From IMG/VR virus record IMGVR_UViG_3300010352_000823: a DNA stretch of 42,656 nucleotides. One strand, written 5' to 3'. Both the position numbers and the translations under genes were made by a program. Below the pieces are notes generated by a model. It had not been told where the DNA came from. It saw nothing but the letters and a program-made list of their open reading frames with translations, and searched no databases. Origin of the DNA: a virus. Of this stretch, positions 1-21,844 are shown one piece after another; position 1 is the stretch's first letter; each line of letters opens with the position of its first letter.

Positions 1-127
1 GCGCCCAGAAGTTTAACAATAGGCAATTGGAAAGGGATTGTCATCAATTCAAGCTGCTTGGTCCAGAGCGGATCAAGGCCAGATATTGGTGTTGTTATAT
101 TCTCGAATGTTTCTGTGTCTTTATCAA
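1..127. repeat. Terminal redundancy copy A, identical to 42530-42656; marks circular closure or an assembly overlap
   Basis: Direct comparison: the first 127 nt (gcgcccagaagtttaacaatagg...ctttatcaa) recur exactly as the last 127 nt of the window. Confidence 0.95.
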
Positions 128-1124
128 ATAAAGCAATACTGTTATTATCGCGGCCTTTGGCCAGGGCATTCAATCTGTTCTGGATAAATTTTGTTGCATT
201 GAATGAATTATCATCTGGTTTAAGATTTGTTCCAAAAACCAACAATGAATACTTTCTTATCAATTTGTTGATGGATTTTCTTGCGGATTCGAATCCATAG
301 GCATAATCAAACGCCAACTGAGCTGTTGGTATTCCAAGAAAATTATAAATTGGGGAATATATCTGCGGGCAATAATTCTCACGTAGACGCAAGAAACGGG
401 AAGCATGTATTTCTTTTCCCATCACGATATAATAGGTTGGTTCATAAAAATCGGCACGCGTTGGGGTTGTTGTATCATATCCCATCGAGGTAAAGTTCCA
501 AGGTTCGATAACTTTTAACCGATTTACTCTCATTCCTTTTAATTTAACCTTGGCGACTTCTTCGTTATTATCATCCCAAATAGGTGTTTTTAATTCTTCA
601 TCATTTGGAGCATTACCATTGGAATCAACAATCTCGACATAAATAAGACATCCGCCATAATATCCGGTTGCAATTTCGCCTTTCTTAAAAGTTTCACGGC
701 AATTAAGATTTTCCAATTTACGGGTAACAAATTCGCTTCTGTCTTTCTGGTCGTCTTTTAATGTATTTATTTTACACCAGTTTTTTGTCATATCATTGGC
801 GATTTTCTGAACGCCATTTCTAATAAGTGGATTCTGGGTCAAAGACATTAAAAAAGGATAACCTGGGAATTTTATACTTGCAGGGTCCATACCCGCAACG
901 CCAAACCCTGCAAAATATGCTGGGGCGTCATCTTTCAAAACAAGCTTATTATCGATTTTCTTATAATTATTGGAAATAAGTAAATCTCTTTGTTGTTCAA
1001 TGGCAATATCTAACGGGGTTTTGTTTTCTTCGAATATGTCGCCATTAGAATCGCTAATTGGATAAGATTTGAATACTTTATGTAAATAATTTACAAATCC
1101 GGTTTTCTTTTTTTTGTTTTCCAT
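1..1124 (-). CDS. Portal protein, N-terminal part; the gene continues across the circular junction into 42118-42529, giving about 511 aa in total
   Basis: ATG at 1124 with AAGGGA SD. The frame stays open to the window edge and is in frame with ORF 42118-42576 through the 127-bp repeat ((1124-47) is divisible by 3). Lies directly downstream of TerL; size and position are typical of a portal. Confidence 0.75.
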   Translation of the reverse strand, partial: MENKKKKTGFVNYLHKVFKSYPISDSNGDIFEENKTPLDIAIEQQRDLLISNNYKKIDNKLVLKDDAPAYFAGFGVAGMDPASIKFPGYPFLMSLTQNPLIRNGVQKIANDMTKNWCKINTLKDDQKDRSEFVTRKLENLNCRETFKKGEIATGYYGGCLIYVEIVDSNGNAPNDEELKTPIWDDNNEEVAKVKLKGMRVNRLKVIEPWNFTSMGYDTTTPTRADFYEPTYYIVMGKEIHASRFLRLRENYCPQIYSPIYNFLGIPTAQLAFDYAYGFESARKSINKLIRKYSLLVFGTNLKPDDNSFNATKFIQNRLNALAKGRDNNSIALFDKDTETFENITTPISGLDPLWTKQLELMTIPFQLPIVKLLG

Positions 1125-1169
1125 CGTAAAATCCCTTTTGGTGTATTGTATAAGTATTTTCTCAAAATG

Positions 1170-2459
1170 TCAAAGTAAGAAAGAGTCTGGTGATAAATCT
1201 GGCTGCAATGATATATTATCTTCGTCAATTTGTTCTCTAATGTTTGCGCTGGGCATATTTATAAACATTTTTCGAATATCTTTTTTATGAAGAGTTATAT
1301 CTTCCAAAGCATATCGAACAGAATCAACCCCGTGATCATCTTGATTTTTCCTAATTTCTGCTGTAAATTCCCCTGATCTTTTATCTTTCTCGTGTTCTAA
1401 TGTTGTGAACTCTCGATATAAATTCTTGCATTCTGGTGAAATATAAATAATATCAAATTCCTGTAATGTTGTATATCCGCCCTCGACCGAACCTTTTCCC
1501 TTTTGGCATGCAACCGCATTTATTCCATATTCATTGACATATTCCGCAATGGCCTCTGGTCGTGCATTATCACATACAACCTTGCGTTTTCCGACAATTT
1601 CTTTGACCAATGGTGCGGTTTGTTTATTAAGGGCATGGTGCATATATAGCTCATCATCAATATAAAGTAAGTTTTTCCCGTCTTTTTTTACAACATACGA
1701 ACCTGATAGAGCAAACGCATCCGCGGCAAATCCCCAGTCAATTCCAAATTTCTCAGGAACACTATGAATAATATCCTCTGGCGTTTCACCAATTTGGACA
1801 TTCTGGAACACAAGTCCCTCATGTGCGCCCCATTCACCAAGACCATATACACGCCACCAATTACTATTTCTATCATGTGCTTCGATTGATTGAATGGTAT
1901 TCTTTGATAAAAATGGATTATCCTTGTATGTTGAAACATCTTCATAAACAGAACCCTTGAATGCTGGATTTTCGAGAATTTTTGGTATTATCCAGAATTT
2001 AGCGGAGGGATTACAGTCTAAAAACACCAAACCAGATGTTCTAGCAATAAGCTGGTCCACAATTTCCCAAGATTGATAATTACACTCGTTTATGAACAAA
2101 TCATCAGATCTGACACCATGTGCTGTATCAATTTTATCAATGGAAACGAAGTTAATCTGACCACCACCTGGGAAAAACAAGATATGTTCGGTTGACCGAT
2201 ACCAAACTGACCATTCTATTCCAAATAGACGCGCAAGAATCTTTGAATCTCGTAAAACACCCATTGAAAGGTGTTTATAAGTCAAACCAATGACATTGAT
2301 GTAACGGTGGCTGTATAAAGCCCGTATAAACAATATGGACAGAATTGACCATGTTTTTGATGATGATGTTCCGCCGCGCGCAAAGATTATCCGCGCACCC
2401 ATTTGAATAGCGGCGACAATCCGGTCATATATTTTTGTAAATTTGATTCCATCATTCAT
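1170..2459 (-). CDS. terL: Terminase large subunit (Terminase_3 / PBSX-type)
   Basis: Walker A-like ARGGTSSSKT, Walker B plus catalytic Glu (DDLFINECN), RNaseH-like nuclease motif FGIDWGF. 429 aa, adjacent to the portal. Confidence 0.9.
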   Translation of the reverse strand: MNDGIKFTKIYDRIVAAIQMGARIIFARGGTSSSKTWSILSILFIRALYSHRYINVIGLTYKHLSMGVLRDSKILARLFGIEWSVWYRSTEHILFFPGGGQINFVSIDKIDTAHGVRSDDLFINECNYQSWEIVDQLIARTSGLVFLDCNPSAKFWIIPKILENPAFKGSVYEDVSTYKDNPFLSKNTIQSIEAHDRNSNWWRVYGLGEWGAHEGLVFQNVQIGETPEDIIHSVPEKFGIDWGFAADAFALSGSYVVKKDGKNLLYIDDELYMHHALNKQTAPLVKEIVGKRKVVCDNARPEAIAEYVNEYGINAVACQKGKGSVEGGYTTLQEFDIIYISPECKNLYREFTTLEHEKDKRSGEFTAEIRKNQDDHGVDSVRYALEDITLHKKDIRKMFINMPSANIREQIDEDNISLQPDLSPDSFLL

Positions 2460-2773
2460 ATTTTTCTTATAATTATTTTATGTTCTGGCATTTTGTTATG
2501 AACTTTTACAACAATCTGATCGACAACCAGTGATGTTGTATCCCGCAATGCAACAAATAACCGCATTTGTTCCATAAGAACATCCAAGAACTTATGCGTA
2601 AATTCCCATTTTAATGCCTCATTTCTTGTATAGATATTAAATTCAAGTCCTATCGGACCATGGTTAATATCTTTTTCCATTTTTCGAGCAACCTGCTGAC
2701 AAGCGACTATAAACTCTTCTTGGGTTATTCTTGACGACAAATCAAGACTTCTAAGTTTTATTTCGGCAGCCAT
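2456..2773 (-). CDS. Hypothetical protein between the TerS candidate and TerL
   Basis: 105-aa ORF with a 4-nt overlap with the terL start; co-oriented and tightly packed. Confidence 0.6.
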   Translation of the reverse strand: MAAEIKLRSLDLSSRITQEEFIVACQQVARKMEKDINHGPIGLEFNIYTRNEALKWEFTHKFLDVLMEQMRLFVALRDTTSLVVDQIVVKVHNKMPEHKIIIRKI

Positions 2774-2790
2774 TTCTCTCTCTTTGGTAA

Positions 2791-3195
2791 TTATTTCGGT
2801 AAATCAATGACTTTTTGGATAGAATTTGCGGTTTTATTATCAGCAACCACAATGGAAATTCCAGCAGGCGCATGAATTTCTTCACTTCCACCCATAATTT
2901 CAATTAACTTTGCAGTTGCCTTAGGATTATTTCTTGAATGATTTCTCATCATAACCGCTGCTTCGATATATCCATCAATTTCAGTTTTTGATAGTTGAGG
3001 AAATTTCCCACGAATCATTTTTGTATCTTCATCATTGGCTTTCATAGACATAATCAAGTCCATAGCCTCTTTCATTGCGTTTTTTGTTTTAATAGCGGCG
3101 TTGGCGGAAATCGCACCTTTTCTATCAGATTCTTTTGTGCGTTTTTCCATTATCTTGCCTTTATTAGCTAAAAATTCTTTTGTTTGTCTTCCCAT
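2791..3195 (-). CDS. Putative terminase small subunit
   Basis: 134-aa basic N-terminus, located upstream of terL, GAGGGTG SD 7 nt before the ATG. No family motif recognised, so the function is positional inference. Confidence 0.35.
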   Translation of the reverse strand: MGRQTKEFLANKGKIMEKRTKESDRKGAISANAAIKTKNAMKEAMDLIMSMKANDEDTKMIRGKFPQLSKTEIDGYIEAAVMMRNHSRNNPKATAKLIEIMGGSEEIHAPAGISIVVADNKTANSIQKVIDLPK

Positions 3196-3198
3196 TTA

Positions 3199-3222
3199 TT
3201 CACCCTCGCGTTCACCCTCGCG
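3199..3222. repeat. Perfect tandem duplication of the 12-mer ttcaccctcgcg (x2) in the MTase/TerS intergenic spacer
   Basis: Read directly. On the mRNA strand this is cgcgagggtgaa x2, so the SD-like GAGGGTG is duplicated. Confidence 0.9.
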
Positions 3223-3226
3223 TCCA

Positions 3227-4432
3227 TTATTTTTTGAATAAAGAGCCATCGGATTCTCTTTTTGCTTGTTTACCAGTGAATTTTTCCCATCTTTTGATAA
3301 TAACATCACAATACTTTGGGTCAAGTTCCATTGTATAGCATTTACGGTTTAATTGTTCACAGGCGATGATTGTTGTTCCTGAACCACCGAATAGGTCAAG
3401 GACGGTATTATTTTCAAGAGAGCTATTTTTAATTTGATAAGCAAATAGCTCAATAGGTTTCATAGTAGGATGTTCTTTATTAGCAGATGGTTTATTGAAT
3501 TCAAGAACAGTTGTTTGTTTTCTATCCGAATTCCAAATATGTGAAGCACCGTCTTTCCAACCGTATAGACATGGTTCGTGTTTCCATTGGTAGTCTTGAC
3601 GACCCATCACCATACTATTTTTTACCCAAATCAAACATTCACGAATTTTCCAACTAGTATTTTTACATGCAGAACGGAAATTGTAACCTTCTGAATCAGC
3701 ATGCCATATGTAAAATACTGCTCCATCCCGCATAAAAGCATTTGCACAAGTAAATGAATCTATTAGAAATTTCATAAAATTATCATCAGACATAGAATCA
3801 TTTTGAATTTTTAATTTATCTTTTGTTTTCCCTTCGTATTCAACGTTATATGGCGGGTCGGTAATAAATAAATCCATTTTAGTATTATTTGATAATTTTT
3901 CTACATCATCAATAATTGTTGCATCCCCACACATCAATCGGTGATTTCCGAGTATCCAAACTTCACCTAATCGACAAATTGGTTTATTTGTATCGTCTAT
4001 ATCTGGACATTCTACTTCTTCAATTTCTTTTTCACTTTCAATTCTTTTGAAATCAATGCCAAAATCATCAAGCTTGATTGGATCGAAATTCAATGAAAGT
4101 AATTTCATATCCCATTTTCCGCCTTGGGTATTCATTCCAAGAAGAACATTTTCCTCTTCATCTTTGGTCAAATCACGGGTTGCAACTAATACTTCAACCT
4201 CAGTATCTGGTTCAAATTGTTCCAAAAGCACTTCATATCGCGCGTGGCCAGATAAAATCATATTTTGATTATTTATAACAATTCTATCAATGTATCCATT
4301 GCGTTTCAATGATTCCCGAACGCCTTTTAATGTTTCTTTTGTGATTTCGCGTGGATTGTTTGGATTTTTGACCAAATCAGATAATTTTCTGATTTCAAAT
4401 TTCCACAAAGATTGATCAATTGTTTTTTTCAT
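3227..4432 (-). CDS. DNA methyltransferase (beta-class N6-adenine/N4-cytosine type) with an N-terminal ParB/Srx-like nuclease domain
   Basis: N-terminus has NPNNPREI and SGHARY (ParB-like). Motif IV is ITDPPYNVEYEG, followed by motif I LDLFGGSGTT; the IV-to-I order is beta class. Confidence 0.85.
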   Translation of the reverse strand: MKKTIDQSLWKFEIRKLSDLVKNPNNPREITKETLKGVRESLKRNGYIDRIVINNQNMILSGHARYEVLLEQFEPDTEVEVLVATRDLTKDEEENVLLGMNTQGGKWDMKLLSLNFDPIKLDDFGIDFKRIESEKEIEEVECPDIDDTNKPICRLGEVWILGNHRLMCGDATIIDDVEKLSNNTKMDLFITDPPYNVEYEGKTKDKLKIQNDSMSDDNFMKFLIDSFTCANAFMRDGAVFYIWHADSEGYNFRSACKNTSWKIRECLIWVKNSMVMGRQDYQWKHEPCLYGWKDGASHIWNSDRKQTTVLEFNKPSANKEHPTMKPIELFAYQIKNSSLENNTVLDLFGGSGTTIIACEQLNRKCYTMELDPKYCDVIIKRWEKFTGKQAKRESDGSLFKK

Positions 4433-4441
4433 TATTTACTC

Positions 4442-5182
4442 CTATTTTTCATATTTGCATTTCTCTGGGAATAAATTATTTAAGAATTTATTCAGTTTTG
4501 GCTTTCTTGGATTACCAATATAGTTATCAAATACAGAAATCCAATCGGTGGTAAATTCATTCGGATCGCCAGATCTTATTTTAACATCATCAGATTGTTT
4601 ATCAAACGGTAAGCCCGCTGCATTTCCATACAAGCTTCTTTTTAGAACTATGTCATGTGAATTGATATAATTTATTACGCGTATATCATTGAAAATAGTG
4701 TTGAATTTACTTCTGTTTATTATAATTGGAAAATGTTGCTCATAATTATATGGAACATTTCGGCCAGAAATTTCTTTTATCAAAGGAAGACAATCTTCAA
4801 ATGTCTTGGCGTATTTTGAATAAACGCCAAATTTTCTGTATTCTTTTATCTGTTCTTCGAGAGTATTCTTAACTTTATTCAACGACTCATTCCAATCTTG
4901 AATTGGTCGGATTAGAATAAAATCATCATTCATAAGAATAAAATCATCAGATATCTTTGGGATGTTATATGCAGCCATAAGGTTCATAGTCGTGTTTCTA
5001 TTCTTGGATACTGCCGAATTTTGGGATGTTGGATAATATAAAACATCATCACTTACCCACCTTGGCTTATATCCAACAATATGTATTTTATCAAATTCTG
5101 GTGCGTTTTTGGCAATAGAGCGAAGACTATACCGTAAATCTTCATTTTGATCGCCGTTGCGCACCATATAAACAATATCCAT
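4442..5182 (-). CDS. Stealth-family protein (putative sugar-1-phosphate transferase)
   Basis: DIVYMVRNGD (CR1-like), EDLRYSLRSIAKNAPEFDKIHIVGYKPRW (CR2 hallmark ELRYSLRS), FILMNDDFILIRP, EQHFPIIINR (CR3-like HxP). Confidence 0.65.
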   Translation of the reverse strand: MDIVYMVRNGDQNEDLRYSLRSIAKNAPEFDKIHIVGYKPRWVSDDVLYYPTSQNSAVSKNRNTTMNLMAAYNIPKISDDFILMNDDFILIRPIQDWNESLNKVKNTLEEQIKEYRKFGVYSKYAKTFEDCLPLIKEISGRNVPYNYEQHFPIIINRSKFNTIFNDIRVINYINSHDIVLKRSLYGNAAGLPFDKQSDDVKIRSGDPNEFTTDWISVFDNYIGNPRKPKLNKFLNNLFPEKCKYEK

Positions 5183-5185
5183 AGC

Positions 5186-6094
5186 TTATTCCAGTATATC
5201 TTTTAATTGTTTTTCTAAATATGGTAAGATTTCGTGAACATCAACCGTTTTGATAATTGATTTGCTTATTCCATCGATACAATCCTCAATCAATGGTGAA
5301 TATGTGCAAATTGGACTTGACGCTGCAAAATTATGAGCTTTATGTAATTCAAACTCTTCATTGTTTGTGATAATCCCACCATTCTTTTGTGCGCAGATCA
5401 TTGTTTTAATACCGAGCGCGGTCACTTCAAGAAAACACCGACCCACCCCAACACCATATTGATAATGCGATAATATCTCAAATATATTATCACGATTCAG
5501 TTTAATTCTATTGTTGAACTTATTTTTGGATATTTCGTCAAATTGCCAACCTTTTCGAATGAATGTGCTTTTTACTTTGCCAAACATTGCGTCTTTACCG
5601 AGATATTTATTGCCGAACCAAATCACGCGTTTACCATAATACTTTTGAAATTTACCCTCAAATTTATCAATGTCCGATACAACAATAGCCATCGGGAGGT
5701 GAATTGCATCAATGCCCATTGATATAATTTTTTCGTATAAATCCAGACGCGCTGTGATATAAATAACTTTTTTCTTATAATTTTTTATAAATTCTTCAAT
5801 TCTTGGGATTTCGCGGTCGATGTTTTCATGCAAATATGATATTATCAAATCTGTTTTTTTGGGAATTATTTCATAATTATTTGAACCAACGGTTGTTATT
5901 ATGATATTTTTATATTTTTTTTGATTGGCCAGCAAGTCGAGGATAATTGGAATATGATACTTTACAATATCAATCGAATAAGTATAAGCACCATTTGTCT
6001 TGTTTTTTGCTGCATGCACAGATTGGTATGAATCTGCCCAGACGGGATGAGTATTGTGATCAAAAAGTGTTATTGTGATATTTTTTTTACCCAT
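5186..6094 (-). CDS. Putative GT-B-like glycosyltransferase partner of the Stealth gene (function uncertain)
   Basis: 302-aa ORF with GAGAGGA SD. C-terminal GVGVGRCFLEVTALGIKTMIC resembles the GT1/GT4 nucleotide-sugar binding segment. Separated from the Stealth start by 3 nt. Confidence 0.35.
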   Translation of the reverse strand: MGKKNITITLFDHNTHPVWADSYQSVHAAKNKTNGAYTYSIDIVKYHIPIILDLLANQKKYKNIIITTVGSNNYEIIPKKTDLIISYLHENIDREIPRIEEFIKNYKKKVIYITARLDLYEKIISMGIDAIHLPMAIVVSDIDKFEGKFQKYYGKRVIWFGNKYLGKDAMFGKVKSTFIRKGWQFDEISKNKFNNRIKLNRDNIFEILSHYQYGVGVGRCFLEVTALGIKTMICAQKNGGIITNNEEFELHKAHNFAASSPICTYSPLIEDCIDGISKSIIKTVDVHEILPYLEKQLKDILE

Positions 6095-6137
6095 TTTAAT
6101 CCTCTCTTGAAAATAATACTCCTATAAAAATAATATG

Positions 6138-6428
6138 TCAAGAAACATTCTCACGAGTTTTACCAAAAACAACCAGCCAAAATTCTGCTTTTATTTTGTT
6201 AATTTCTTCTTCGGGCATTGCATAACCATTCCGTTGATAAAAAGCTATTTTAATATCTTTTTCTTCATTTTGTGCATAGCCACAGTATTTATAAACATTT
6301 ATAATATCGACATGGCGACAAATATGCCCAGGAAATAATTTTTTTGCCAGTGTATATTGCTTTTCTTTATCGTGAAGTATGTTGATGTCTTTTTTCAGAT
6401 ATTTATCAATCTTTTTTGCGTCTGCCAT
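6138..6428 (-). CDS. Hypothetical protein
   Basis: 96-aa ORF; start follows the upstream stop by 2 nt; GGGGAA SD. Confidence 0.6.
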   Translation of the reverse strand: MADAKKIDKYLKKDINILHDKEKQYTLAKKLFPGHICRHVDIINVYKYCGYAQNEEKDIKIAFYQRNGYAMPEEEINKIKAEFWLVVFGKTRENVS

Positions 6429-6430
6429 CG

Positions 6431-7303
6431 TTATTTCCCCAATGCTTGTTTCTTTTTGATAGAGTTACGCATAACATAGATTGTTTGCATAGTGCATCCT
6501 AAATCTTCTGATTGTTTTCTTGTGTCGCCAGGATATTTCTTTTCAAGTTCCAAAAGTTCATTTTCGCGGGGACTTAATTTTATATTTTTTGTTTGACTGG
6601 ACTTTGCTGGAAAATACTCACCAGGTTGATACGATTTTGGCTTTGGCGTTTCGATTTCTGTTTTTTTTAATTTTTCAATCTTATCCACTATTTTTTTATC
6701 TTCTTTGATTGCTGTGTCAAAAACTTCTTCAATTATTCCATTTGTTTTACATGTGGCTTTATTTACAGGCAATGGGTTACAGTTTGAATCTATAAAATGA
6801 ACATTTGTAAAGTATTCTGTTTTGTTATCCTTTGCAATAAAATGAGTGCATACGGGATCATAACTTACAATATACGAATCTTTTGGAATTTTGTGATCCA
6901 TTTTTATTTGATTGAATTTATCAAAAGCTTGACTTATTTTTATTCTATGTTGTTTTTCTTCTTCTGATAATTCATTTTTTATTGGGTTTTCAATTTTAAC
7001 TTTCTGATCTGGAATATCAACCGGTTCTAATTCAACAGCAACGACATCTTTCTTTTCTGATGATTCGGAATCATAAATTACCATCCGGTCAACAATACTT
7101 GATTTGCAAATATACTGACCGGTGAACATCTGATTATCGTTGACGGTCATTGCAAGACATATTTGTTTTTCACTTTCAAATACCACAAAACCTGTGGTTA
7201 AGTGAACAGTTTCGGGTATATCTTTAAGTTTGTTGATTTCGTGCCACTTATCGTTATCAAACATGATGCTATTATCTACCCATGCAATTTTCTCGATTTT
7301 CAT
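6431..7303 (-). CDS. Putative transcriptional regulator with a C-terminal LuxR/sigma70-region-4-type HTH
   Basis: GGAGG SD. C-terminus LSPRENELLELEKKYPGDTRKQSEDLGCTMQTIYVMRNSIKKK matches the LSxRExxVL...TV helix-turn-helix pattern. Confidence 0.45.
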   Translation of the reverse strand: MKIEKIAWVDNSIMFDNDKWHEINKLKDIPETVHLTTGFVVFESEKQICLAMTVNDNQMFTGQYICKSSIVDRMVIYDSESSEKKDVVAVELEPVDIPDQKVKIENPIKNELSEEEKQHRIKISQAFDKFNQIKMDHKIPKDSYIVSYDPVCTHFIAKDNKTEYFTNVHFIDSNCNPLPVNKATCKTNGIIEEVFDTAIKEDKKIVDKIEKLKKTEIETPKPKSYQPGEYFPAKSSQTKNIKLSPRENELLELEKKYPGDTRKQSEDLGCTMQTIYVMRNSIKKKQALGK

Positions 7304-7538
7304 TTTTTCCTCCAGTTTTATTATCTATCTCTTCGACAATGCGATTATACCACCATTCATTGATAGGTTGCAAGCTTTTTATGTTATTTTTTTCAAGATA
7401 TTCTGATGGTGATAAATTACCCATAATCGGGTCATTTTTAAGTCTTCGCGCAGCCGCGGTGTATATTGTATCCAAATCGTTAAACCAAGTGAATTTTAAT
7501 AATTGTCCAGAAAAAGTTCGTAATATACCATATTCCAT
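7272..7538 (-). CDS. Hypothetical protein, first ORF after the 300-bp non-coding region
   Basis: 88-aa ORF with protein-like composition, but no recognisable SD upstream of the ATG. Confidence 0.5.
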   Translation of the reverse strand: MEYGILRTFSGQLLKFTWFNDLDTIYTAAARRLKNDPIMGNLSPSEYLEKNNIKSLQPINEWWYNRIVEEIDNKTGGKNENRENCMGR

Positions 7539-7597
7539 TTTAATTTATGCCAGATACGCTCTGGCAGGCGTCTTGCATAATCCGACTTTTACATCAG

Positions 7598-7621
7598 AAT
7601 CTTTGGTAGGAAATCTTTGGT
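7598..7621. repeat. Two copies of aatctttggt spaced 14 bp apart (7598-7607 and 7612-7621)
   Basis: Read directly in the non-coding region. Confidence 0.85.
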
Positions 7622-7691
7622 CGCGTTACACCTTTCGGAGGGCAGGTAATTAAACCTACTTGCGATACCAAACGCTCTTTCCCATAATTTT

Positions 7692-7720
7692 ATTTTACTT
7701 ATCATCTATTAAATAATCAA
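7692..7720 (-). promoter_or_regulatory. Candidate sigma70-type promoter TTGATT-N17-TAAAAT, firing toward 7538
   Basis: Hexamers read on the minus strand (-35 at 7720-7715, -10 at 7697-7692). Would give a leader of about 145 nt. Confidence 0.35.
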
Positions 7721-7838
7721 CCATAATTTTTTGCCCAAATCACACACAATATATTCATTTCTATACTAGAATCCTTGAATATAGCAACTTAAATTATAAT
7801 GTTTATAATATAAAAAATATAACAAAATAAAAATCTTT

Positions 7839-8021
7839 TCATCTTATTTTTTCTTTTTGAATTGTATAATTTTTTAATCCTATATTTTCGGCAAATATAC
7901 CCGCCAACCTTTCTGTGTCAAAATTCTTTGATTTTTTATCAGAATCTGTAAATACAAAACTCTTATCAATCAATGATATTGCGTATTTGAAATACAAACT
8001 ATTTTTAACAATATGATACAT
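7839..8021 (-). CDS. Hypothetical protein
   Basis: 60-aa ORF; GAGGATAA SD formed by the end of the upstream gene. Confidence 0.5.
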   Translation of the reverse strand: MYHIVKNSLYFKYAISLIDKSFVFTDSDKKSKNFDTERLAGIFAENIGLKNYTIQKEKIR

Positions 8022-8023
8022 TT

Positions 8024-8239
8024 TTATCCTCGTTTATTTTCGTTTCTAGTTCTGTATATTTCCATTTGCCATTCATGAACATATACCCATTTTTTTATTT
8101 CATACATTTTGTGTTTTTCACCATGGCTTTCTTCAATGTGGCCATCTTTGAAAATTCCAAATCTTGGATTACCTTCGTGCAAATGAAAAATAACCTGTGC
8201 TTTTTCATTTGGAATTTGTGTAGGATTATTCCAGTTCAT
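8024..8239 (-). CDS. Hypothetical protein
   Basis: 71-aa ORF preceded by the conserved junction AAGGATAACTAAAATG. Confidence 0.6.
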   Translation of the reverse strand: MNWNNPTQIPNEKAQVIFHLHEGNPRFGIFKDGHIEESHGEKHKMYEIKKWVYVHEWQMEIYRTRNENKRG

Positions 8240-8240
8240 T

Positions 8241-8429
8241 TTAGTTATCCTTACAAGTTTTATATATTTGTTTTTTAATTACTTCACAATTTGTATCAAC
8301 AGTTATATTGTCCATTCCACGCATACCTATCTTACAAAAATCTTTTCCTATCGCAGGATGTTTATCTGCAAGGAAAACAATCAGATTTGCGTTTATGTAA
8401 TAGTCGTTAATTGGAATTAAGCATATCAT
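8241..8429 (-). CDS. Hypothetical protein (start refined to the internal ATG)
   Basis: ATG at 8429 is preceded by the same AAGGATAACTAAAATG junction. The longer ORF-track start at 8459 would overlap the upstream gene. Confidence 0.55.
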   Translation of the reverse strand: MICLIPINDYYINANLIVFLADKHPAIGKDFCKIGMRGMDNITVDTNCEVIKKQIYKTCKDN

Positions 8430-8430
8430 T

Positions 8431-9039
8431 TTAGTTATCCTTATTTGGATTAAGTTCATCTATTTCTGATTGTGTTAAGGGTGTAAAGTTTTGAAAACTA
8501 AAACCATTTTTACTATTATATCTTTCTATGTTTCTATCATTTATTTTATAAAGTATGCCCAATACATTTTTGTTATTTTCATAATCCCAAAACCAGCCCA
8601 ACTTTCCAATATACTTACTCATATCTACTGAACGGGTTATTTCTTTTATGGCATTTATGTAAGTCCAAGAAAAATCATCATAGACCAGTCTGTCGTCCAT
8701 AATAATTTTTACTACTGCCGCATATCTCGCGCCATCAACACTAACAACTGATATTTTATCGCCAGATTTTAATTCTTTTACTGTCAGTTGTAATTTGAAA
8801 TTGTCGACAATAATATCTTTAACTTCTTCCACATCATCTTCCATAAAAAACTCTGATGCAGGGATTATTTCTTTCATTTCTTTTGGTTCTGGTTTTATTA
8901 TAATCGAATAGCAACAACTAGGAATTAAAATTCTTTCTATATTCATAAACTTACAAACTTTATCGGCTTCTTCCTGTGAATTACAGCGAATAGCTATTTT
9001 TTTATCAATAAGTTCCTGTAAGGTATATTTTGTTTTCAT
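8431..9039 (-). CDS. Hypothetical protein; its N-terminal ~35 aa are paralogous to the N-terminus of the 15891-16361 product
   Basis: 202-aa ORF. KTKYTLQELIDKKIAIRCNSQEEADKVCKFMNI compared with TKYTREFLAENKIFIKCDTEDEASAVCTKLNI. Confidence 0.65.
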   Translation of the reverse strand: MKTKYTLQELIDKKIAIRCNSQEEADKVCKFMNIERILIPSCCYSIIIKPEPKEMKEIIPASEFFMEDDVEEVKDIIVDNFKLQLTVKELKSGDKISVVSVDGARYAAVVKIIMDDRLVYDDFSWTYINAIKEITRSVDMSKYIGKLGWFWDYENNKNVLGILYKINDRNIERYNSKNGFSFQNFTPLTQSEIDELNPNKDN

Positions 9040-9437
9040 TTTAGTTTCCTTTCTATTTGTTCTTTTAATTCATAAAATCTTTTATCAGCACCATTATGAG
9101 AATGACATTTTGCGCATAATGGAATAAGATTCGTTTGATCTGTCCGCCTTGATGGGTTCTGACTTCTAGTTTGTTGCCAATGATGGACTTGTATATTTTC
9201 TACACTTCCACAAAGAAAACAAACTTTACCCCATTTATCAAAACATATTTTTCTTGTTAACAACCATATCTTTTTCCAATTTTCTGATATTTTACGAATT
9301 GGTTTGACATTTTCTTTTATCCTTATACTTGTTCCTGGCCAGTATTTAACACCTGCCTTTGGCTTAAATGGCTTCAATGGCGTTCGTTTCATTTGTATTC
9401 TCGATTGGTAACAACGGTATAAAATTCGGGACACCAT
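9036..9437 (-). CDS. HNH endonuclease; the start may be the internal ATG at 9392
   Basis: CFLCGS...IQVHHW...NLIPLCAKCHSH. The N-terminus MKRTPLKPFKPK beginning at 9392 is typical for this type. Confidence 0.7.
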   Translation of the reverse strand: MVSRILYRCYQSRIQMKRTPLKPFKPKAGVKYWPGTSIRIKENVKPIRKISENWKKIWLLTRKICFDKWGKVCFLCGSVENIQVHHWQQTRSQNPSRRTDQTNLIPLCAKCHSHNGADKRFYELKEQIERKLK

Positions 9438-9558
9438 CCCAAAATTTCAAATAACATTCATAGGAATCAAAATTAACAATATGTGGCCTATTATTTTTTA
9501 TCACTCGAATGAACTTATTTTGTTGATTTATTATTTTCCCGCATTGTTCACATACCAT
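9364..9558 (-). CDS. Small zinc-ribbon-like protein
   Basis: 64-aa ORF with CEQCGK ... FDSYECYLKF (Cys pair plus a Cys-containing tail). Confidence 0.5.
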   Translation of the reverse strand: MVCEQCGKIINQQNKFIRVIKNNRPHIVNFDSYECYLKFWDGVPNFIPLLPIENTNETNAIEAI

Positions 9559-9567
9559 TTTATCCCC

Positions 9568-10065
9568 CTAAAATAAGTTTTGTTGCTTACCTGTTGCAAA
9601 TTGTGCTTGCGCACGCCATTCTTGCTTATACTGGACACAATCTTTTATATCATCGATTGATACCATTTCATTACTGAATCTTATAACTTTGGCTTTCTTT
9701 GTCCAGACAAATTTTGGAACTTTTCTTTGGCCGGTCATAAATTCAAATCCGCGCAATGTCATAAACCAATCACCACTATCGTCATCGGCCGGCATTGCAA
9801 GCCCAAAATAACGAAGTTTTTGGAAATTCGTGTATTCGCTCTTATTTTCAAGAAGTTTTTGTAGATTTGCGCGCCGACCAGTTGCTTGAAACAAATGACT
9901 TAATCCACGAATCATTATTGTTGTTAGAGAATGTTTATATTCAACAGGCATTTTTTGTTGACAAATAGGACAATCATCAAATTCATATCCAAGATCTTTT
10001 AATTGTTCATACGAATCTTTGATGGTTTCTATTAAATCTTTTACAAGTATATTTTCGTGTTCCAT
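9568..10065 (-). CDS. Hypothetical protein
   Basis: 165-aa ORF with GGAGG-like SD (ctggaggaaaaaatgg); contains CPIC. Confidence 0.65.
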   Translation of the reverse strand: MEHENILVKDLIETIKDSYEQLKDLGYEFDDCPICQQKMPVEYKHSLTTIMIRGLSHLFQATGRRANLQKLLENKSEYTNFQKLRYFGLAMPADDDSGDWFMTLRGFEFMTGQRKVPKFVWTKKAKVIRFSNEMVSIDDIKDCVQYKQEWRAQAQFATGKQQNLF

Positions 10066-10092
10066 TTTTTCCTCCAGTTTTATTTTATAGAA

Positions 10093-10335
10093 TTATTCTT
10101 TATCGTCATCATGTTTAATTTTCAAAATATCATCAACAACTTTTATCAATTCTTTTTCGGATTCGGATAACTTTAATTCTGTTCTTTGTGATATTTTACC
10201 AAAATAATGTCGATCTGTTAAATATGTATGAAGTATTCTATATGCTTTTGACAGGGCGATATTGTTATTTTTACAAACAAATTTTACTTTTTGTAATACT
10301 TCTAATAATACTCTTTCGTTCTTTTTTATTTTCAT
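10093..10335 (-). CDS. Hypothetical protein, first gene of the leftward arm
   Basis: 80-aa ORF with AAAGGAAAAAACA SD, directly downstream of a consensus promoter. Confidence 0.65.
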   Translation of the reverse strand: MKIKKNERVLLEVLQKVKFVCKNNNIALSKAYRILHTYLTDRHYFGKISQRTELKLSESEKELIKVVDDILKIKHDDDKE

Positions 10336-10358
10336 TGTTTTTTCCTTTTTATAACCAA

Positions 10359-10386
10359 ATTATAGCAATAAAAAATAAAAAGTCAA
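10359..10386 (-). promoter_or_regulatory. Leftward promoter TTGACT-N16-TATAAT
   Basis: Hexamers read on the minus strand (-35 at 10386-10381, -10 at 10364-10359), about 25 nt upstream of the first leftward ATG. Confidence 0.65.
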
Positions 10387-10411
10387 ATCTTTTTTTGAAA
10401 AAAATTATTAT

Positions 10412-10552
10412 TTGCCAAATTCTGCAAAGTGTCGATATTTGCCATTATGCGCCGTATATGCGCCATCAAATAGCCAAATGTGCGCGCATTTTTGGCGTTT
10501 TTATTCTAATAATTCTTTGATTATAGCCAATTATTTATAACCATAAGGTTAT
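10412..10552. promoter_or_regulatory. Repeat-rich core of the control region (candidate operators, iterons or origin)
   Basis: T[TA]GCCA[AT][AT]T x4 (10412, 10439, 10471, 10524). ATGCGCC x2 spaced 11 bp (10447, 10458). Hairpin gccaaa/tttggc followed by a T-run (10473-10505). Palindrome ATAACC-ATAA-GGTTAT (10537-10552). Confidence 0.45.
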
Positions 10553-10645
10553 GTAATTTATGTATTTATAAAATATATATTAAAAAAACAGAAGATATAT
10601 AAAATAGAAAAATAAAAATAAAATAAAAAAAATCAAAAAATAAAT

Positions 10646-10674
10646 TTGCAATTCGATTTTTTTTATGTAATAAT
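10646..10674 (+). promoter_or_regulatory. Rightward promoter TTGCAA-N17-AATAAT
   Basis: Hexamers read on the plus strand, about 25 nt upstream of the AAAGGAG SD and the ATG at 10698. Confidence 0.55.
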
Positions 10675-10697
10675 GTGTTCATAGAAAGGAGCAAACA

Positions 10698-10886
10698 ATG
10701 AAACAATTATCAATAATTTTATTAACCACAATCTGTATTTGGATTATAATTCCAAAAGATAAAACCCCGCAACCAACAAAAAACGATTGCATTGCATACT
10801 GGACACAAAGAACATCATCTTGGAATAACAAACCCAGCGCAGAAACAATACAATTTGATTCAAATTTTTGTGGGGATGTTAAATAA
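10698..10886 (+). CDS. Small membrane or secreted protein
   Basis: AAAGGAGCAAACA-ATG; N-terminal hydrophobic segment LSIILLTTICIWIII; stop overlaps the helicase start. Confidence 0.65.
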   Translation: MKQLSIILLTTICIWIIIPKDKTPQPTKNDCIAYWTQRTSSWNNKPSAETIQFDSNFCGDVK

Positions 10887-12349
10887 TGTTCAAACTTCGT
10901 AAATATCAAGAAGACGCAGTAAAATTCTGCACAAAGAAACTGGCCAATGATAAAAATTCATTGTTGGTGGCCGCGACTGGTGCAGGAAAAACAATAATGT
11001 TATCTGCTGTTGCGCGTTGGATTGCGAATAATTCAAAAGGTAAAATTTATGTTATTGTTGGTCGGGATAAGATTAACCAGCAAAACATAGATAAATTTCG
11101 TCAGGTAGTTCCTGAATATGCTGCGTCTGAGTATTCCGGTAGAATGAAGTCAATGCATGGTCGAGTTGTATTTATGACGGTTCAAACCGCAATAAATCAC
11201 TTTGAAAAATTACCAAAACCAGTGGCAATAATATACGATGAAGTGCAGCATTCTCGCGCAAAATCCTATGAAGAACTAACCGCGTATTGGAATCCGGAAT
11301 TTTTATTTGGTGCAACCGCAACCCCAATTCGAGGTGATAAAAAGACACTTGGAACATTATTTGATAATTTTTATCAGATATCGGCGCGCGAATTGATTGC
11401 TATGAATTATCTATCAAAACCAGAATTTCATAATTTTAATTCTCTTTGGGATATTCCAGACGGTCTTTTTGGTGATTTGTTGTTGAAATACATTGAAAAT
11501 TTGAAAAAAGATTTGAAAAAGTCTTTTGAAGAACTGGAACGATTACCTGGAAAATCAATCATTTTCTGCAGAAACCACAGCGTTGCAATCCATGTAAAAG
11601 AAACTTTGCAGGAAATGGGTGAATCTGTATCGTATATAAAATCTGGTGGTTATGATAACGATGAGGAAATGGACAGATTTATCAAAGGTAAAACTCAGTG
11701 GTTGGTCAATGTTGATATTGCAACCGAGGGATTTGATGATCCGTATATTATGAATGTGTTTAATTTATGCATCGATGGGTCGCGCAGCCGTTGGGTTCAA
11801 AAAGTTGGGCGTGGCTTGCGACCACATCAGAATAAAACTGTTTGTCGGATATTTGATTGCGGCGGCAATATAGAAAACTATGGGGATTTGGATTTTACCG
11901 AAGTATTGCCAAAAGCAGCAGAAACAAGGAATGGTAAATTTATTATCTTAGATGACCCATTTGCAGATGAATCTGAAAAGAAAGACGATAATGAGGAACA
12001 AAAACCAGAATTACAGGATATACCAGAATCCTGTTTCAAATACGGTCAAGAAATTTCACCGTATGCGGCCCCAGATGGTTGGTTTTCTTTTTACGATTTG
12101 GAATATGGCGTGGTTTATATTCGAAATGATGGTAAGCTTGCAAGATACAATGGTGTTGAAATTAAAATTTACGAAGAATCTGATATAGAAATTGATAACA
12201 TTGACTTTGGTATAAAACCAGAATCCGATGATATAAACAACTGGCAATTAAGAAAAATAACCGATATTCCAAGCTTTGGAATGACAAAAAACCAAGCTGA
12301 CGCCGTGTTATCTTGGAAATTATGGAAAAAGAAAACCACCCGCCAATGA
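10886..12349 (+). CDS. SF2 (DEAD/DExH-box, ResIII-like) DNA helicase
   Basis: Motif I AATGAGKT, motif II YDEVQH, motif III GATATP, motif VI QKVGRGLR. Confidence 0.9.
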   Translation: MFKLRKYQEDAVKFCTKKLANDKNSLLVAATGAGKTIMLSAVARWIANNSKGKIYVIVGRDKINQQNIDKFRQVVPEYAASEYSGRMKSMHGRVVFMTVQTAINHFEKLPKPVAIIYDEVQHSRAKSYEELTAYWNPEFLFGATATPIRGDKKTLGTLFDNFYQISARELIAMNYLSKPEFHNFNSLWDIPDGLFGDLLLKYIENLKKDLKKSFEELERLPGKSIIFCRNHSVAIHVKETLQEMGESVSYIKSGGYDNDEEMDRFIKGKTQWLVNVDIATEGFDDPYIMNVFNLCIDGSRSRWVQKVGRGLRPHQNKTVCRIFDCGGNIENYGDLDFTEVLPKAAETRNGKFIILDDPFADESEKKDDNEEQKPELQDIPESCFKYGQEISPYAAPDGWFSFYDLEYGVVYIRNDGKLARYNGVEIKIYEESDIEIDNIDFGIKPESDDINNWQLRKITDIPSFGMTKNQADAVLSWKLWKKKTTRQ

Positions 12350-18433: not shown

Positions 18434-19108
18434 ATGAAACGAAAGGCCTTAATTTTATTTGCTGGAATTGGTGGATTTTGTCAGGATATTGATTGGACTG
18501 ATTGGGAAGTTACTGCCGTTGAATTTGATTCAGATATAGCAAAATGTTATCAAGACAGATTTCCAGCACATAAAGTTATTGTCGCAGACGCAATGACATA
18601 TATGTTAGACCATTATAAGGAATTTGATTTTATACAGACAAGCCCACCTTGTCAATCTCACTCACGATTAAGATATGGACTTGGTGTTTGTGGTGGTAAA
18701 TGCAAACCTGTATATTGTGACCCTATGCTTTGGCAATCTTTAATATTCCTTGAAACAGAATATCTACGTTGTCGGCCAGACGGTATATATCTTTGTGAAA
18801 ATGTGCAACCATATTATGATTCATTTATTAGATTTTTATCGAACAGACGTTTAACAATTGGAAGACACTTAGTCTGGACAAATGCAGAATTGTTAATATT
18901 TGACCCAAAACAAGCACCAAATACAAAAGGATTTTCTACCAAGTCAAAAACAGGGCGTATTCGAGGTATGAATCTTGAAAATATGAAAGAGCAAACTGGT
19001 ATTGATTTGTCTGCATACCCAAAAATTAAAAACAAACGACAAGTTTTACGGAATATGTTTGAACCAGAACTTGGTAAATTTATATTTGACGCAATTTATA
19101 ATAAATAA
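18434..19108 (+). CDS. Short DNA (cytosine-5)-methyltransferase-like protein
   Basis: Motif I LILFAGIGG, motif IV TSPPCQSHS, motif VI LCENV. Only 224 aa. Confidence 0.7.
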   Translation: MKRKALILFAGIGGFCQDIDWTDWEVTAVEFDSDIAKCYQDRFPAHKVIVADAMTYMLDHYKEFDFIQTSPPCQSHSRLRYGLGVCGGKCKPVYCDPMLWQSLIFLETEYLRCRPDGIYLCENVQPYYDSFIRFLSNRRLTIGRHLVWTNAELLIFDPKQAPNTKGFSTKSKTGRIRGMNLENMKEQTGIDLSAYPKIKNKRQVLRNMFEPELGKFIFDAIYNK

Positions 19109-19122
19109 AAAAAGGAATCAAA

Positions 19123-19428
19123 ATGAAAACAAATATTTGGAAAGATAATAAGACTTTGCCGGAGTTTGGTAGAGATGTTTTATTAAAGTTAAAATCAGAT
19201 TCTGGTTTTTATTATATTGTTTCAGATTTTGGTAATTTTAAGGTGTTCAATCCTATTGAATGGTGTTATCTTGACGACCTGCTAGCACAGTCCAGTAAGG
19301 TAGGAAGACTTGAAAAAGCTTTGGATATTGCAAAAGGATTTATAAACTATTGTGCTGATATGCGTGATATGGAATCTGCGAAGAAAATACGAGAAGAAAT
19401 AACCCAAGCCCTAGATAAAAAGGAATGA
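19123..19428 (+). CDS. Hypothetical protein (N-terminus DUF551-like)
   Basis: 101-aa ORF with AAAGGAATCAAA SD; NIWKDNKTLPEFGRDVLL. Confidence 0.6.
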   Translation: MKTNIWKDNKTLPEFGRDVLLKLKSDSGFYYIVSDFGNFKVFNPIEWCYLDDLLAQSSKVGRLEKALDIAKGFINYCADMRDMESAKKIREEITQALDKKE

Positions 19429-19430
19429 TC

Positions 19431-19913
19431 ATGAATAAATACTATGAAAAACATCGTGAAGTTATTTTACAACGCCGCCGCGATAGTCGCAGATTAAAAA
19501 CTGCATTTGAACCAAACAAACCATCTGGTCCAGAATACTGGTTAATTCCGGAATTTATTTATAATCCATTAAATCAAAAATATAAATTTGATTTTGATCC
19601 ATGCCCATATCCAAAACCAGCAGGATATAATTCATTATCCAGTGAAGTAAAATGGGGTAAAATGAATTGGGTTAATCCACCTTTCAAATTGCGTGATGCA
19701 CCTTATGGCGGGATAGCAAAGTTTGTTGATCGTGCGATTTTGGAAAAGAAAAAAGGAAACAAAAGTGTTTTTATCTTGCCATGCTCTGTTGGAATTGGTA
19801 AGTTAATTGCTGCGGGGGGGACAGTTATATCTGCGCAGCAGGTTAATTTCTTGGAAAAAAATACCAAGAAACCATCGCCAGCCAAATACTGGCAACTAAT
19901 CATAGAACTATAA
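19431..19913 (+). CDS. Small amino-DNA-methyltransferase (phage Dam-like, NPPF motif)
   Basis: FDFDPCPYPKPAGYN...KWGKMNWVNPPF fits the phage N6-adenine MTase pattern (DxDPC...W...NPP[YF]). Start moved to the ATG with proper SD spacing. Confidence 0.55.
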   Translation: MNKYYEKHREVILQRRRDSRRLKTAFEPNKPSGPEYWLIPEFIYNPLNQKYKFDFDPCPYPKPAGYNSLSSEVKWGKMNWVNPPFKLRDAPYGGIAKFVDRAILEKKKGNKSVFILPCSVGIGKLIAAGGTVISAQQVNFLEKNTKKPSPAKYWQLIIEL

Positions 19914-20906: not shown

Positions 20907-21485
20907 TTATGCGATTTTATCCGCATATTCTTTCAAATCCTGTAATCTTTTAGTCCAACCCTCACCAAATCTTTCCCATCCTGGCCTTGTTTTATAGTAT
21001 TCAAGTCTACTTACCAGTAATAAATCCGGATTCAAATCACAATCACGAACTGCTTTTACGGTCTGTGGACCGATAATACCATCTGGTTTACATCCGGCCC
21101 ATGATTGTAATATCTGTTTTCCTCTAATGGCTGGCATATTAACAACAGAATCGAATAAATAGATATCAATCGGACTGTTGAAAATATAACATCTGTGAGC
21201 TTCCCAGTATTCGTGTTGATAAATTTCGACTATTTCAGCCATTATATCGGCACGATTTTTTACAAATTCGGTTATTTCACGACTTAATGCAGAAGAACCG
21301 TAGACATTTCCTTTTTCTGTTCGTATTGGAAATTTCATATCAATTTCACGCCACAACATCATTTTTGGATGATTGACCCTACTTATTCCAAGGATTGTTT
21401 CACCGCCAGTATCTGACGCAATATAATTATATCCACCCTCAGCCTGGAATATCCATTTGAGGCACAAATCAAATCTTTTTGTCAT
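20907..21485 (-). CDS. Endolysin: GH108 N-acetylmuramidase with C-terminal PG_binding_3 domain
   Basis: LKWIFQAEGGYNYIASDTGGETILGIS (GH108 EGGY...D.GG.T..GI) and DGIIGPQTVKAV ... SRLEYY (PG_binding_3). Confidence 0.85.
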   Translation of the reverse strand: MTKRFDLCLKWIFQAEGGYNYIASDTGGETILGISRVNHPKMMLWREIDMKFPIRTEKGNVYGSSALSREITEFVKNRADIMAEIVEIYQHEYWEAHRCYIFNSPIDIYLFDSVVNMPAIRGKQILQSWAGCKPDGIIGPQTVKAVRDCDLNPDLLLVSRLEYYKTRPGWERFGEGWTKRLQDLKEYADKIA

Positions 21486-21741: not shown

Positions 21742-21844
21742 AATCCTTTTGCCCAGCTCTATAAATGCTGCGAACACCCAAATACCCAAGAAACAAAACA
21801 GAACCGATACAAACACCCCAAATAATCCATTTAACATTTTTCAT
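21599..21844 (-). CDS. Putative i-spanin (N-terminal TM plus coiled region)
   Basis: GGTGAGGGGG-ATG. MKNVKWIIWGVCIGSVLFLGYLGV TM segment followed by a Q-rich helical segment. Confidence 0.55.
   Translation of the reverse strand: MKNVKWIIWGVCIGSVLFLGYLGVRSIYRAGQKDCELSHSQAQQQANHTIQTITQNITQQVMDTDTVTLRNWLLKNRKRAE

Follow-up and report, generated by a model that had tools for sequence, protein, structure and literature searches.

The virus record IMGVR_UViG_3300010352_000823 of IMG/VR, a stretch of 42,656 nucleotides (nt) to which we refer in its entirety as the window, contains two neighboring open reading frames (ORFs) whose products of 246 and 302 amino acids (aa) very probably constitute a sugar-phosphate plus sugar transferase module. 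A first-pass annotation made from the DNA letters had placed both ORFs correctly on the minus strand, 3 nt apart, and all the peptides that it quoted (DIVYMVRNGD, EDLRYSLRSIAKNAPEFDKIHIVGYKPRW, FILMNDDFILIRP, EQHFPIIINR and GVGVGRCFLEVTALGIKTMIC) are present in the translations. The two genes are:

4442..5182, minus strand: mini-Stealth hexose-1-phosphate-transferase-like gene, 246 aa (Stealth_CR2, PHROG 7999, AlphaFold2 model and Foldseek)
5186..6094, minus strand: GT-B-like gene, 302 aa (AlphaFold2 fold and Foldseek; no sequence-level family)

The Stealth family was defined by Sperisen et al. (2005) and is represented in Pfam by four models of its conserved regions (Stealth_CR1 to CR4; PF17101, PF11380, PF17102 and PF17103). 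The 246-aa protein matches Stealth_CR2 over residues 12–96 (E = 3.1e-11; 43.9 bits vs. a gathering cut-off of 39.4), and the same model is matched by all 54 of its 54 aligned relatives. Residues L16, S19, R21, N85, D86 and D87, from the LRYSLRS and NDD motifs of the CR2 core of some 100 residues, are invariant or nearly so in the family. The protein further matches PHROG 7999, listed there as of "unknown function", over its full length (E = 4.7e-46). A phmmer search of the PDB with the single sequence finds the catalytic domain of GNPTAB (E = 3.6e-4), with which the family profile aligns at E = 7.7e-9 (residues 11–154). Both transmembrane segments and spacer segments are absent from the protein. 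Its AlphaFold2 model (predicted local distance difference test score, pLDDT, of 95.8) has the Stealth catalytic-domain fold, which is GT-A-like with a deep cavity for a uridine diphosphate (UDP) sugar. In a Foldseek comparison with the PDB, CpsY ranks first (E = 9e-10) and GNPTAB domains follow (4e-8); the 12 best matches are all CpsY or GNPTAB structures (E 9e-10 to 1e-6, template-modeling (TM) scores of 0.49–0.70), and glycosyltransferases (GTs) of the GT-A type from families GT8 and GT24 rank after them.

Residues N85, D86, D87, H150, P152, R182 and N187 are invariant across the family alignment, and the family profile places H150-x-P152 on the AHMP motif of GNPTAB. We take this motif to hold GNPTAB His956, in which case R986 and Q992 match the numbering used in PMC9388126. 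Invariant R182 lies 32 residues past H150, compared with a corresponding spacing of 30 in GNPTAB, and by this spacing R182 would be the counterpart of GNPTAB R986 (CpsY R419). The catalytic set of GNPTAB comprises D407/D408, H956, R986, N1151, E389 and Q992 (PMC9388126), and the corresponding residues of CpsY are given in PMC10668966. By alignment or spacing, N85/D86/D87, H150, R182 and N187 appear to fit D407/D408, H956, R986 and Q992, respectively, while the sugar-binding Glu (GNPTAB E389, CpsY E305) is seemingly Asn67 (N67) in the phage protein. Its CR2 region, fold and catalytic residues assign the 246-aa protein to a divergent, stripped-down mini clade of the Stealth superfamily, and conserved residues and model together indicate a Stealth-type hexose-1-phosphate transferase that is probably active.

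The 302-aa protein is of a different kind. It lacks transmembrane segments and has no match by sequence in Pfam, PHROGs, NCBIfam or the PDB, and a tblastn search with its ORF against 50,697 GenBank phages was likewise empty. A family profile of 106 sequences found no match in the PDB, and the same 106 relatives yielded a single marginal match in Pfam (Glyco_transf_4, E = 0.004), so that the protein has no place by sequence in a GT family of CAZy or Pfam such as Glycos_transf_1 or Glyco_trans_1_4. Kinship with the CgeB-like GTs that neighbor Stealth genes in marine phages was considered and rejected (hhalign probability of 1.3%). The AlphaFold2 model (pLDDT 92.3) consists of alternating beta and alpha elements in two halves. 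Its Foldseek matches in the PDB (PimA, BshA, WsaF, SenB and EXT1/2; E 6e-4 to 6e-3, TM scores of 0.37–0.48, or 0.43–0.48 without EXT1/2) are weak and consistent, and those in BFVD include many viral GT-B proteins, CgeB/YkvP-like ones among them (E 1e-5 to 1e-3). Four motifs are conserved in the family (NGAxTYS, YLH, FGNxxxxK and GxGRCxLExxALGxK), and by eye FGNxxxxK and GxGRCxLExxALG resemble the GRxxxxKG and E(x7)E regions of GT4 enzymes. The first-pass annotation had described the protein as ending in a GT1/GT4-like segment; a GT-B-like character is borne out by fold and motif resemblance but not by any sequence-level family match, and the quoted GVGVGRCFLEVTALGIKTMIC occupies residues 214–234 of 302, i.e., the C-terminal third and not the very end.

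Relatives of the 302-aa protein amount to 195 representatives among 1.84e9 proteins and are almost restricted to phage contigs; a single match was obtained in 185,579 bacterial and archaeal species genomes. Judged from its modeled fold, the protein is the founding member of a small, nearly phage-restricted GT-B-like family. Members of the family can have other glycosyltransferases as partners as well, since the copy at loci L018/L019 (5257–7805) stands without a Stealth neighbor beside an Exostosin/GT47-like and RXYLT1-like GT.

Stealth-like and 302-aa-type genes are adjacent in approximately 10 of 14 independent lineages (the window and loci L005/6, L011, L012, L013, L016, L020 and L021 provide examples). 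In a podovirus lineage (L008/9, L105 and L106) only an FkbM-type methyltransferase gene separates them, and at L017 the Stealth-like gene lies 5 kb from the 302-aa relative. Five representative proteins are fusions of the two, four of them with the Stealth part preceding the GT-B-like part (P0145, P0153, P0167 and P0235) and one in reverse order (P0200). Fusion in both domain orders strongly indicates that the two activities work together, and this survey of related loci agrees with the earlier treatment of the pair as a unit. The dependence runs one way: the Stealth-like family, with 581 matches in a word-indexed search and a presence in 284 IMG/VR stretches as well as 50 GenBank actinophage records, is far larger and usually lacks a 302-aa-type partner. 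A 369-aa protein encoded upstream of the Stealth gene of a jumbo phage was tested as a divergent member of the 302-aa family and is not one.

The first-pass annotation had also asked whether the pair might be a common and already characterized phage module. The Stealth-like gene is indeed common in phages, but its function is uncharacterized: PHROG 7999 is of unknown function, and all GenBank homologs of the 246-aa protein are annotated "hypothetical protein". In the literature searched we found no description of a phage Stealth protein or its function and none of a Stealth plus GT-B pairing or fusion, and the PADLOC defense models matched neither the phage pair nor the bacterial pair described below.

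In phages, the pair is always found within or beside the genes for head, tail or packaging functions. In the window and at L001 the pair stands upstream of terS/terL/portal, a position taken by a lone Stealth gene at L025 and in Mycobacterium phage Fionnbharth (gp6). In the podovirus lineage the pair is flanked by the portal/scaffold region on one side and by the tail tubular genes on the other, in the order terL, portal, intervening ORFs, the pair with FkbM, a 336-aa ORF and a tail-tubular gene. At L020 the pair is located between the major head protein and portal genes and is followed by a collagen-repeat protein, and at L021 minor tail and Gly-rich proteins are encoded before it and a collagen-like protein after it. 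The collagen-repeat (GXY) proteins of these otherwise different contigs are related to one another and encoded one to two genes downstream of the pair (L020 8983–9687, L021 8033–8707); they are candidate acceptor proteins. The Stealth-like gene of jumbo phages is located immediately upstream of the gene for the tail sheath, and in about 20 marine-type contigs it is found within islands of glycosyltransferases (GT4 with CAP59, CgeB-like Glyco_trans_1_2, RXYLT1-like), FkbM methyltransferases and 2-oxoglutarate/Fe(II) oxygenases resembling prolyl 4-hydroxylases (P4H-like). On many marine/freshwater-type contigs (L053, L090, L071, L099, L042 and L054; ~5001–5700) the Stealth-like gene is the sole plus-strand gene of a minus-strand island of GTs, an FkbM methyltransferase and several 2-oxoglutarate/Fe(II) oxygenases, separated by only ~30–60 bp from a divergent GT gene, and this inversion is conserved. 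Exceptions are two lone Stealth-like genes, one located among the replication genes of Gordonia phage BrutonGaster (gp105) and one in a jumbo phage close to the genes for dCMP deaminase, dUTPase and ThyX, as well as the module beside the lysis genes at L007 and L012.

A copy of the pair resides on the chromosome of the Clostridia metagenome-assembled genome INTA.CYC.159 (L005/L006 5092–6924, with L022 identical), where its two genes are divergently oriented. These two genes form an island of ~39% G+C against flanks of 44–51%, located between comEC and dnaJ-guaA-guaB-dnaK, and the chromosome was seen in dozens of samples. The copy is apparently domesticated or transferred.

Within the window, the pair belongs to a packaging/morphogenesis operon that is marked by the large terminase gene, which the pair precedes. 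Further features of this region are:

1170..2459, minus strand: large terminase subunit (Pfam Terminase_3 and Terminase_3C; PHROG terminase large subunit)
3227..4432, minus strand: fusion of a ParB N-terminal domain and an N6/N4 DNA methyltransferase (Pfam N6_N4_Mtase, E = 1.9e-26; PHROG 498, E = 1.9e-140)
6113..6141, minus strand: sigma-70-like promoter match TTGACA-17-TATTAT, 11 of 12 positions (consensus match only, within the 43-nt gap upstream of the 302-aa ORF)

The ParB-methyltransferase and terminase genes are thus as the first-pass annotation had them; the former begins 9 nt downstream of the 246-aa gene and is followed by two small ORFs and then by the large terminase gene. The ParB-methylase shares the operon of the pair, yet it is not a conserved partner of the module, as it adjoins the pair in the window only and is absent beside it at the other loci examined. 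The label of a "late-type regulator" upstream of the pair could not be confirmed, because the ORFs at 6138..6428 and 6431..7303 have no significant match in any library. The C-terminus of the latter, a 290-aa ORF without Pfam or PHROG match, contains ELLELEKKYPGDTRKQSEDLGCTMQTIYVMRNSIKKK, which by eye resembles a helix-turn-helix or sigma region-4-like segment.

The promoter match at 6113..6141 may mark the start of the transcription unit holding the pair. Four sigma-70 matches of 11/12 occur in positions 1..11500, all on the minus strand (10386–10359, 7921–7894, 6141–6113 and 1173–1145); two head gene blocks, in front of the 302-aa ORF (6141–6113) and of the ORF after the terminase (1173–1145), and the match at 10386–10359 is directly upstream of the first minus-strand ORF (10093..10335). 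Such an arrangement may correspond to genuine operons and to a host that uses promoters of the sigma-70 type.

Bases 1–127 of the window are identical to bases 42530–42656 (a 127-bp direct terminal repeat representing assembler overlap), and the window is therefore a whole genome, circular or terminally redundant, with a length of about 42,529 bp. The cut interrupts what is probably the portal gene, an ORF (1..1124, minus strand) that continues beyond the first base. Both proteins of the pair were found identical on nine contigs of 20–50 kb from different samples. The phage, tailed and of gut type, is a myovirus by its gene content, which includes a major head protein, sheath, baseplate and tape measure, and its closest terminase relatives are those of Parabacteroides and Phocaeicola gut phages (35–40% identity). 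A close sequenced relative is lacking, since a nucleotide search of the region against the 50,697 GenBank phages, like the tblastn search with the 302-aa ORF, returned no match. In the stretches 20907–21837 and 22125–22574, the phage encodes a GH108 endolysin with a PG_binding_3 domain, followed by a spanin-like 122-aa ORF with an N-terminal transmembrane segment and an internal lipobox (LLFVTGC), and another ORF that opens with a lipobox (LALIGC). Taken together, these genes suggest a Gram-negative host. At least three DNA methyltransferase-like genes (3227–4432, 18434–19108 and 19425–19913), one of them a short C5-cytosine type whose match covers no more than the N-terminal portion of the Pfam model, and one a weak Dam-like match, point to a heavy investment in anti-restriction methylation. 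The small ORFs at 9036–9437, among the early minus-strand genes, and at 23178–23531, between tail-fiber and lysis genes, show a Cys/His pattern typical of HNH endonucleases (CxxC ... HH ... CxxCH), recognized by pattern alone.

We propose that the two genes act as one enzymatic module that would make, in the infected cell's cytoplasm, a glycan containing a phosphodiester, with nucleotide sugars supplied by the host. The 246-aa enzyme would take UDP-hexose or UDP-N-acetylhexosamine, move hexose-1-phosphate onto an acceptor hydroxyl and free uridine monophosphate (UMP); a GNPTAB-like mechanism is predicted, in which the DD motif holds Mg2+, the histidine serves as base and the arginine stabilizes the phosphate. 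The 302-aa partner would add a second sugar from a nucleoside diphosphate (NDP) sugar, either before the phosphosugar, thereby making its acceptor, or after it, thereby capping or extending it. In lineages carrying the FkbM-type methyltransferase, this enzyme probably O-methylates the product. As the module sits in or next to head, tail and packaging genes and its proteins are soluble, we infer that it is expressed late and that phage structural proteins are the most likely acceptor, which would amount to virion phosphoglycosylation. Fold, conserved catalytic residues, linkage and genomic surroundings of the two genes are direct results of the analysis; donor, reaction order, timing and acceptor are predictions. 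The virion is our preferred target, albeit held with somewhat less than even confidence, because of the collagen-like or Gly-rich neighbors, the P4H-like oxygenases at other loci and the precedent set by mycobacteriophages in which glycosyltransferases of the phage glycosylate the virion (Freeman et al. 2023, as presented in PMC12363180). A bolder version, which we consider rather unlikely, holds that a 25-kDa Stealth enzyme and a new GT-B-like family form a dedicated minimal phage machine attaching sugar-1-phosphate-linked glycans directly to virion proteins. To our knowledge, protein modification through sugar-1-phosphate is mainly found in protists, and no virus particle has been reported to carry it.

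Several observations weigh against this interpretation. The identity of the 246-aa protein as a Stealth enzyme, claimed in the first-pass annotation from CR1-, CR2- and CR3-like blocks, holds for CR2, fold and catalytic residues but does not extend to the other Pfam models. The CR1 model has no match at E ≤ 1 in the protein and none in its 54 relatives, and the N-terminal MDIVYMV, in which D2, V4 and Y5 are nearly invariant, resembles CR1 (IDVVYTW-type) by eye only. The CR3 model is equally unmatched in the protein and the 54 relatives, and CR4 (PF17103) remains below threshold (E = 0.063, 13.7 bits vs. a cut-off of 27.4), with weak matches in 9 of the 54. In GNPTAB, N1151 of the CR4 tetrapeptide (CLND/CIND) coordinates Mg and the beta-phosphate, and this Asn has no obvious counterpart in the phage protein, where the aligned residue is F218; the likely CR4 counterpart, W214-I-S216-V-F-D219-N, retains the Asp and not the Asn. 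The GT-B assignment of the 302-aa protein relies on TM scores of only 0.4–0.55. Collagen-like (GXY) repeats were searched for in the window phage and none were found, and gene position is circumstantial as a guide to timing or target. Characterized Stealth enzymes act on glycans and not on proteins directly, barring protein-linked N-glycans, and the Clostridia chromosomal pair must act on a cellular substrate, as no phage genes are nearby.

The last two points support the alternative that the pair decorates a host envelope glycan, adding sugar-1-phosphate and sugar on the cytoplasmic side to the precursor of a cell-surface polymer such as capsule, O-antigen, wall polysaccharide or a teichoic-acid-like polymer. 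Adsorption of other phages or of progeny phage would thereby be blocked, resulting in receptor masking, superinfection exclusion or debris avoidance, effects for which prophage-encoded TarP and Gtr operons offer precedents. Characterized Stealth enzymes, i.e., capsule polymerases, CpsY and GNPTAB, all modify or polymerize glycans (PMC5974469, PMC10668966, PMC9388126), the low-G+C Clostridia pair among housekeeping genes has only a cellular acceptor at its disposal, and the module beside the lysis genes at L007 and L012 occupies a typical moron position. However, no integrase is present among the annotated ORFs of the window (several ORFs being unannotated), and the pair, with gaps of 3 nt and 9 nt, is packed together with methylase and terminase genes in a unit whose late expression would leave surface remodeling little time. 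A transmembrane segment, a flippase or a transporter partner is lacking, all phage contexts are morphogenetic, and a family with one match in 185,579 species genomes is not a typical lysogenic-conversion cassette. Envelope decoration is a close second to the virion as target, if on its own an unlikely one. Quite improbable in our estimation is a two-enzyme polymerase, in which Stealth and GT-B enzymes would alternate in making a poly(glycosyl-glycosyl-phosphate) chain by analogy with GT/TagF-like capsule polymerases, its teichoic-acid-like product being either free or attached to a component of the virion or cell. The fusions in both orders mirror the bipartite poly(oligosaccharide phosphate) capsule polymerases, whose domains complement in trans, and Stealth capsule polymerases are processive hexose-1-phosphate polymerases (PMC5974469). 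Against this, a single domain is described for Stealth polymerases and the bipartite enzymes known so far use a TagF-like domain (PMC5974469), the window phage lacks lipid-primer or export genes nearby, and the proteins of the pair are far smaller than known polymerases and without tetratricopeptide-repeat (TPR) or oligomerization domains.

A role in DNA hypermodification would have the GT-B-like enzyme, and perhaps also the Stealth enzyme, glycosylate a modified base before packaging, together with the methyltransferase, in order to evade restriction. It was suggested by the placement of the pair between the putative regulators, whose label is unconfirmed, and the ParB-methyltransferase just upstream of the terminase, and is in line with phage GT-A and GT-B enzymes that glycosylate 5-hydroxymethylcytosine (5hmC) and have ParB, methyltransferase and terminase neighbors (Pyle et al., bioRxiv 10.1101/2023.12.21.572611), as well as with the lone Stealth-like genes near dCMP deaminase, dUTPase and ThyX or in the BrutonGaster replication module. 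However, Pfam and PHROG scans of the window ORFs tested revealed no source of 5hmC or 5-hydroxymethyluracil (5hmU), i.e., neither a ThyS-like hydroxymethylase nor a TET/JBP 5mYOX enzyme. Scans of the replication-module ORFs, several of which are unannotated, found a helicase, a C5-methyltransferase-like fragment and a Dam-like methyltransferase, and nothing TET/JBP-like or thymidylate-synthase-like. We know of no DNA modification that uses sugar-1-phosphate transfer, which also speaks against such a role. DNA-modifying GT-B enzymes match T4 beta-glucosyltransferase at E values of 1e-5 to 1e-7 (Pyle et al., bioRxiv 10.1101/2023.12.21.572611), whereas the 50 PDB structures that match the 302-aa model best do not include this enzyme. 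The conserved neighbors of the module are FkbM methyltransferases, GTs, P4H-like oxygenases, and collagen-like and structural proteins rather than base-modification enzymes, and the ParB-methylase adjacency that prompted the idea is specific to the window genome. Because we found no 5hmC/5hmU source in these scans, no T4 beta-glucosyltransferase among the 50 best matches and no base-modification enzymes among the conserved neighbors, we consider DNA hypermodification very improbable. Overall, the gene contexts favor virion glycosylation or host glycan decoration and disfavor DNA hypermodification.

The Stealth-like family of PHROG 7999 is present on hundreds of phage contigs as well as in actinophages that are cultivable and well studied, the latter including Fionnbharth-like Cluster K phages, which are relatives of therapy candidates, and it is annotated as hypothetical everywhere. 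The present analysis proposes a concrete chemistry for it, i.e., sugar-1-phosphate transfer with a GT-like partner that is obligatory in some lineages, and thus offers a testable hypothesis. Phage virion glycosylation was recently shown to blunt antibody recognition, and if the virion is the target, such glycosylation would extend to a new linkage type and many more phage groups. Direct phosphoglycosylation of the virion, if true, would provide tailed phages of diverse hosts (actinobacteria and Gram-negative bacteria), jumbo phages included, with an anionic glycan coat affecting adsorption, stability or immune recognition. If instead the host envelope is the target, the pair would represent a new kind of phage-driven surface remodeling. 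With either target, the pair introduces a GT-B-like family for which Pfam has no model, and its Stealth enzymes, the smallest known, make attractive subjects for structural studies and for chemoenzymatic synthesis.

Among known systems, GT4-type GT-B enzymes (PimA, BshA, WsaF and TarM) and viral GT-B proteins, CgeB/YkvP-like proteins of giant viruses among them, would share with the 302-aa protein the two Rossmann domains predicted for it, and the partner genes of its family likewise encode glycan enzymes; unlike them, it has a small N-terminal domain and no detectable sequence kinship. Phage DNA glycosyltransferases (T4 alpha- and beta-glucosyltransferase, and the 5mYOX- or ThyS-associated GT-A and GT-B enzymes of Pyle et al.) are similar in their GT-B-like fold and in having ParB, methyltransferase or terminase genes nearby, but the partner in our pair is a sugar-phosphate transferase and no hydroxymethyl-pyrimidine pathway was found in the genome. 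Bipartite GT/TagF-like polymerases (CslB, Cps1B and Cps7D; Litschko et al. 2018, PMC5974469) also combine a glycosyltransferase with a phosphotransferase, in one polypeptide or in trans. They differ in using a TagF-like and not a Stealth domain, in their size of >800 aa, in their TPR domains and in residing in capsule loci with export genes. Cps1B and CslB were considered as Stealth-domain proteins and rejected as such, the phosphotransferase domain being TagF-like (PMC5974469), so that they serve as an analogy only.

Another comparison is with the virion glycosylation cassettes of the mycobacteriophages Che8, Corndog and Myrna (Freeman et al. 2023, as presented in PMC12363180), which likewise consist of cytoplasmic phage glycosyltransferases. 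Their acceptors are phage structural proteins, and loci related to our pair add a methyltransferase. The cassettes differ in using conventional glycosyltransferases, with no Stealth enzyme or phosphodiester reported in that account, and for our pair the virion is a proposed target. The Stealth hexose-1-phosphate transferases with which the 246-aa protein was compared are CsaB/CsxA of Neisseria meningitidis, CpsY of Mycobacterium tuberculosis (PDB 8J2N) and animal GNPTAB (PDB 7S6N, 7S05). In common with these it keeps the NDD metal/ribose motif and, judged by alignment or by similar spacing, apparently also the histidine base of HxP and the phosphate-binding Arg; a UDP-sugar is its predicted donor, with UMP as the product released. 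Unlike them, it dispenses with spacers, N-terminal extension and membrane anchor, and it is encoded by phages within morphogenesis operons.

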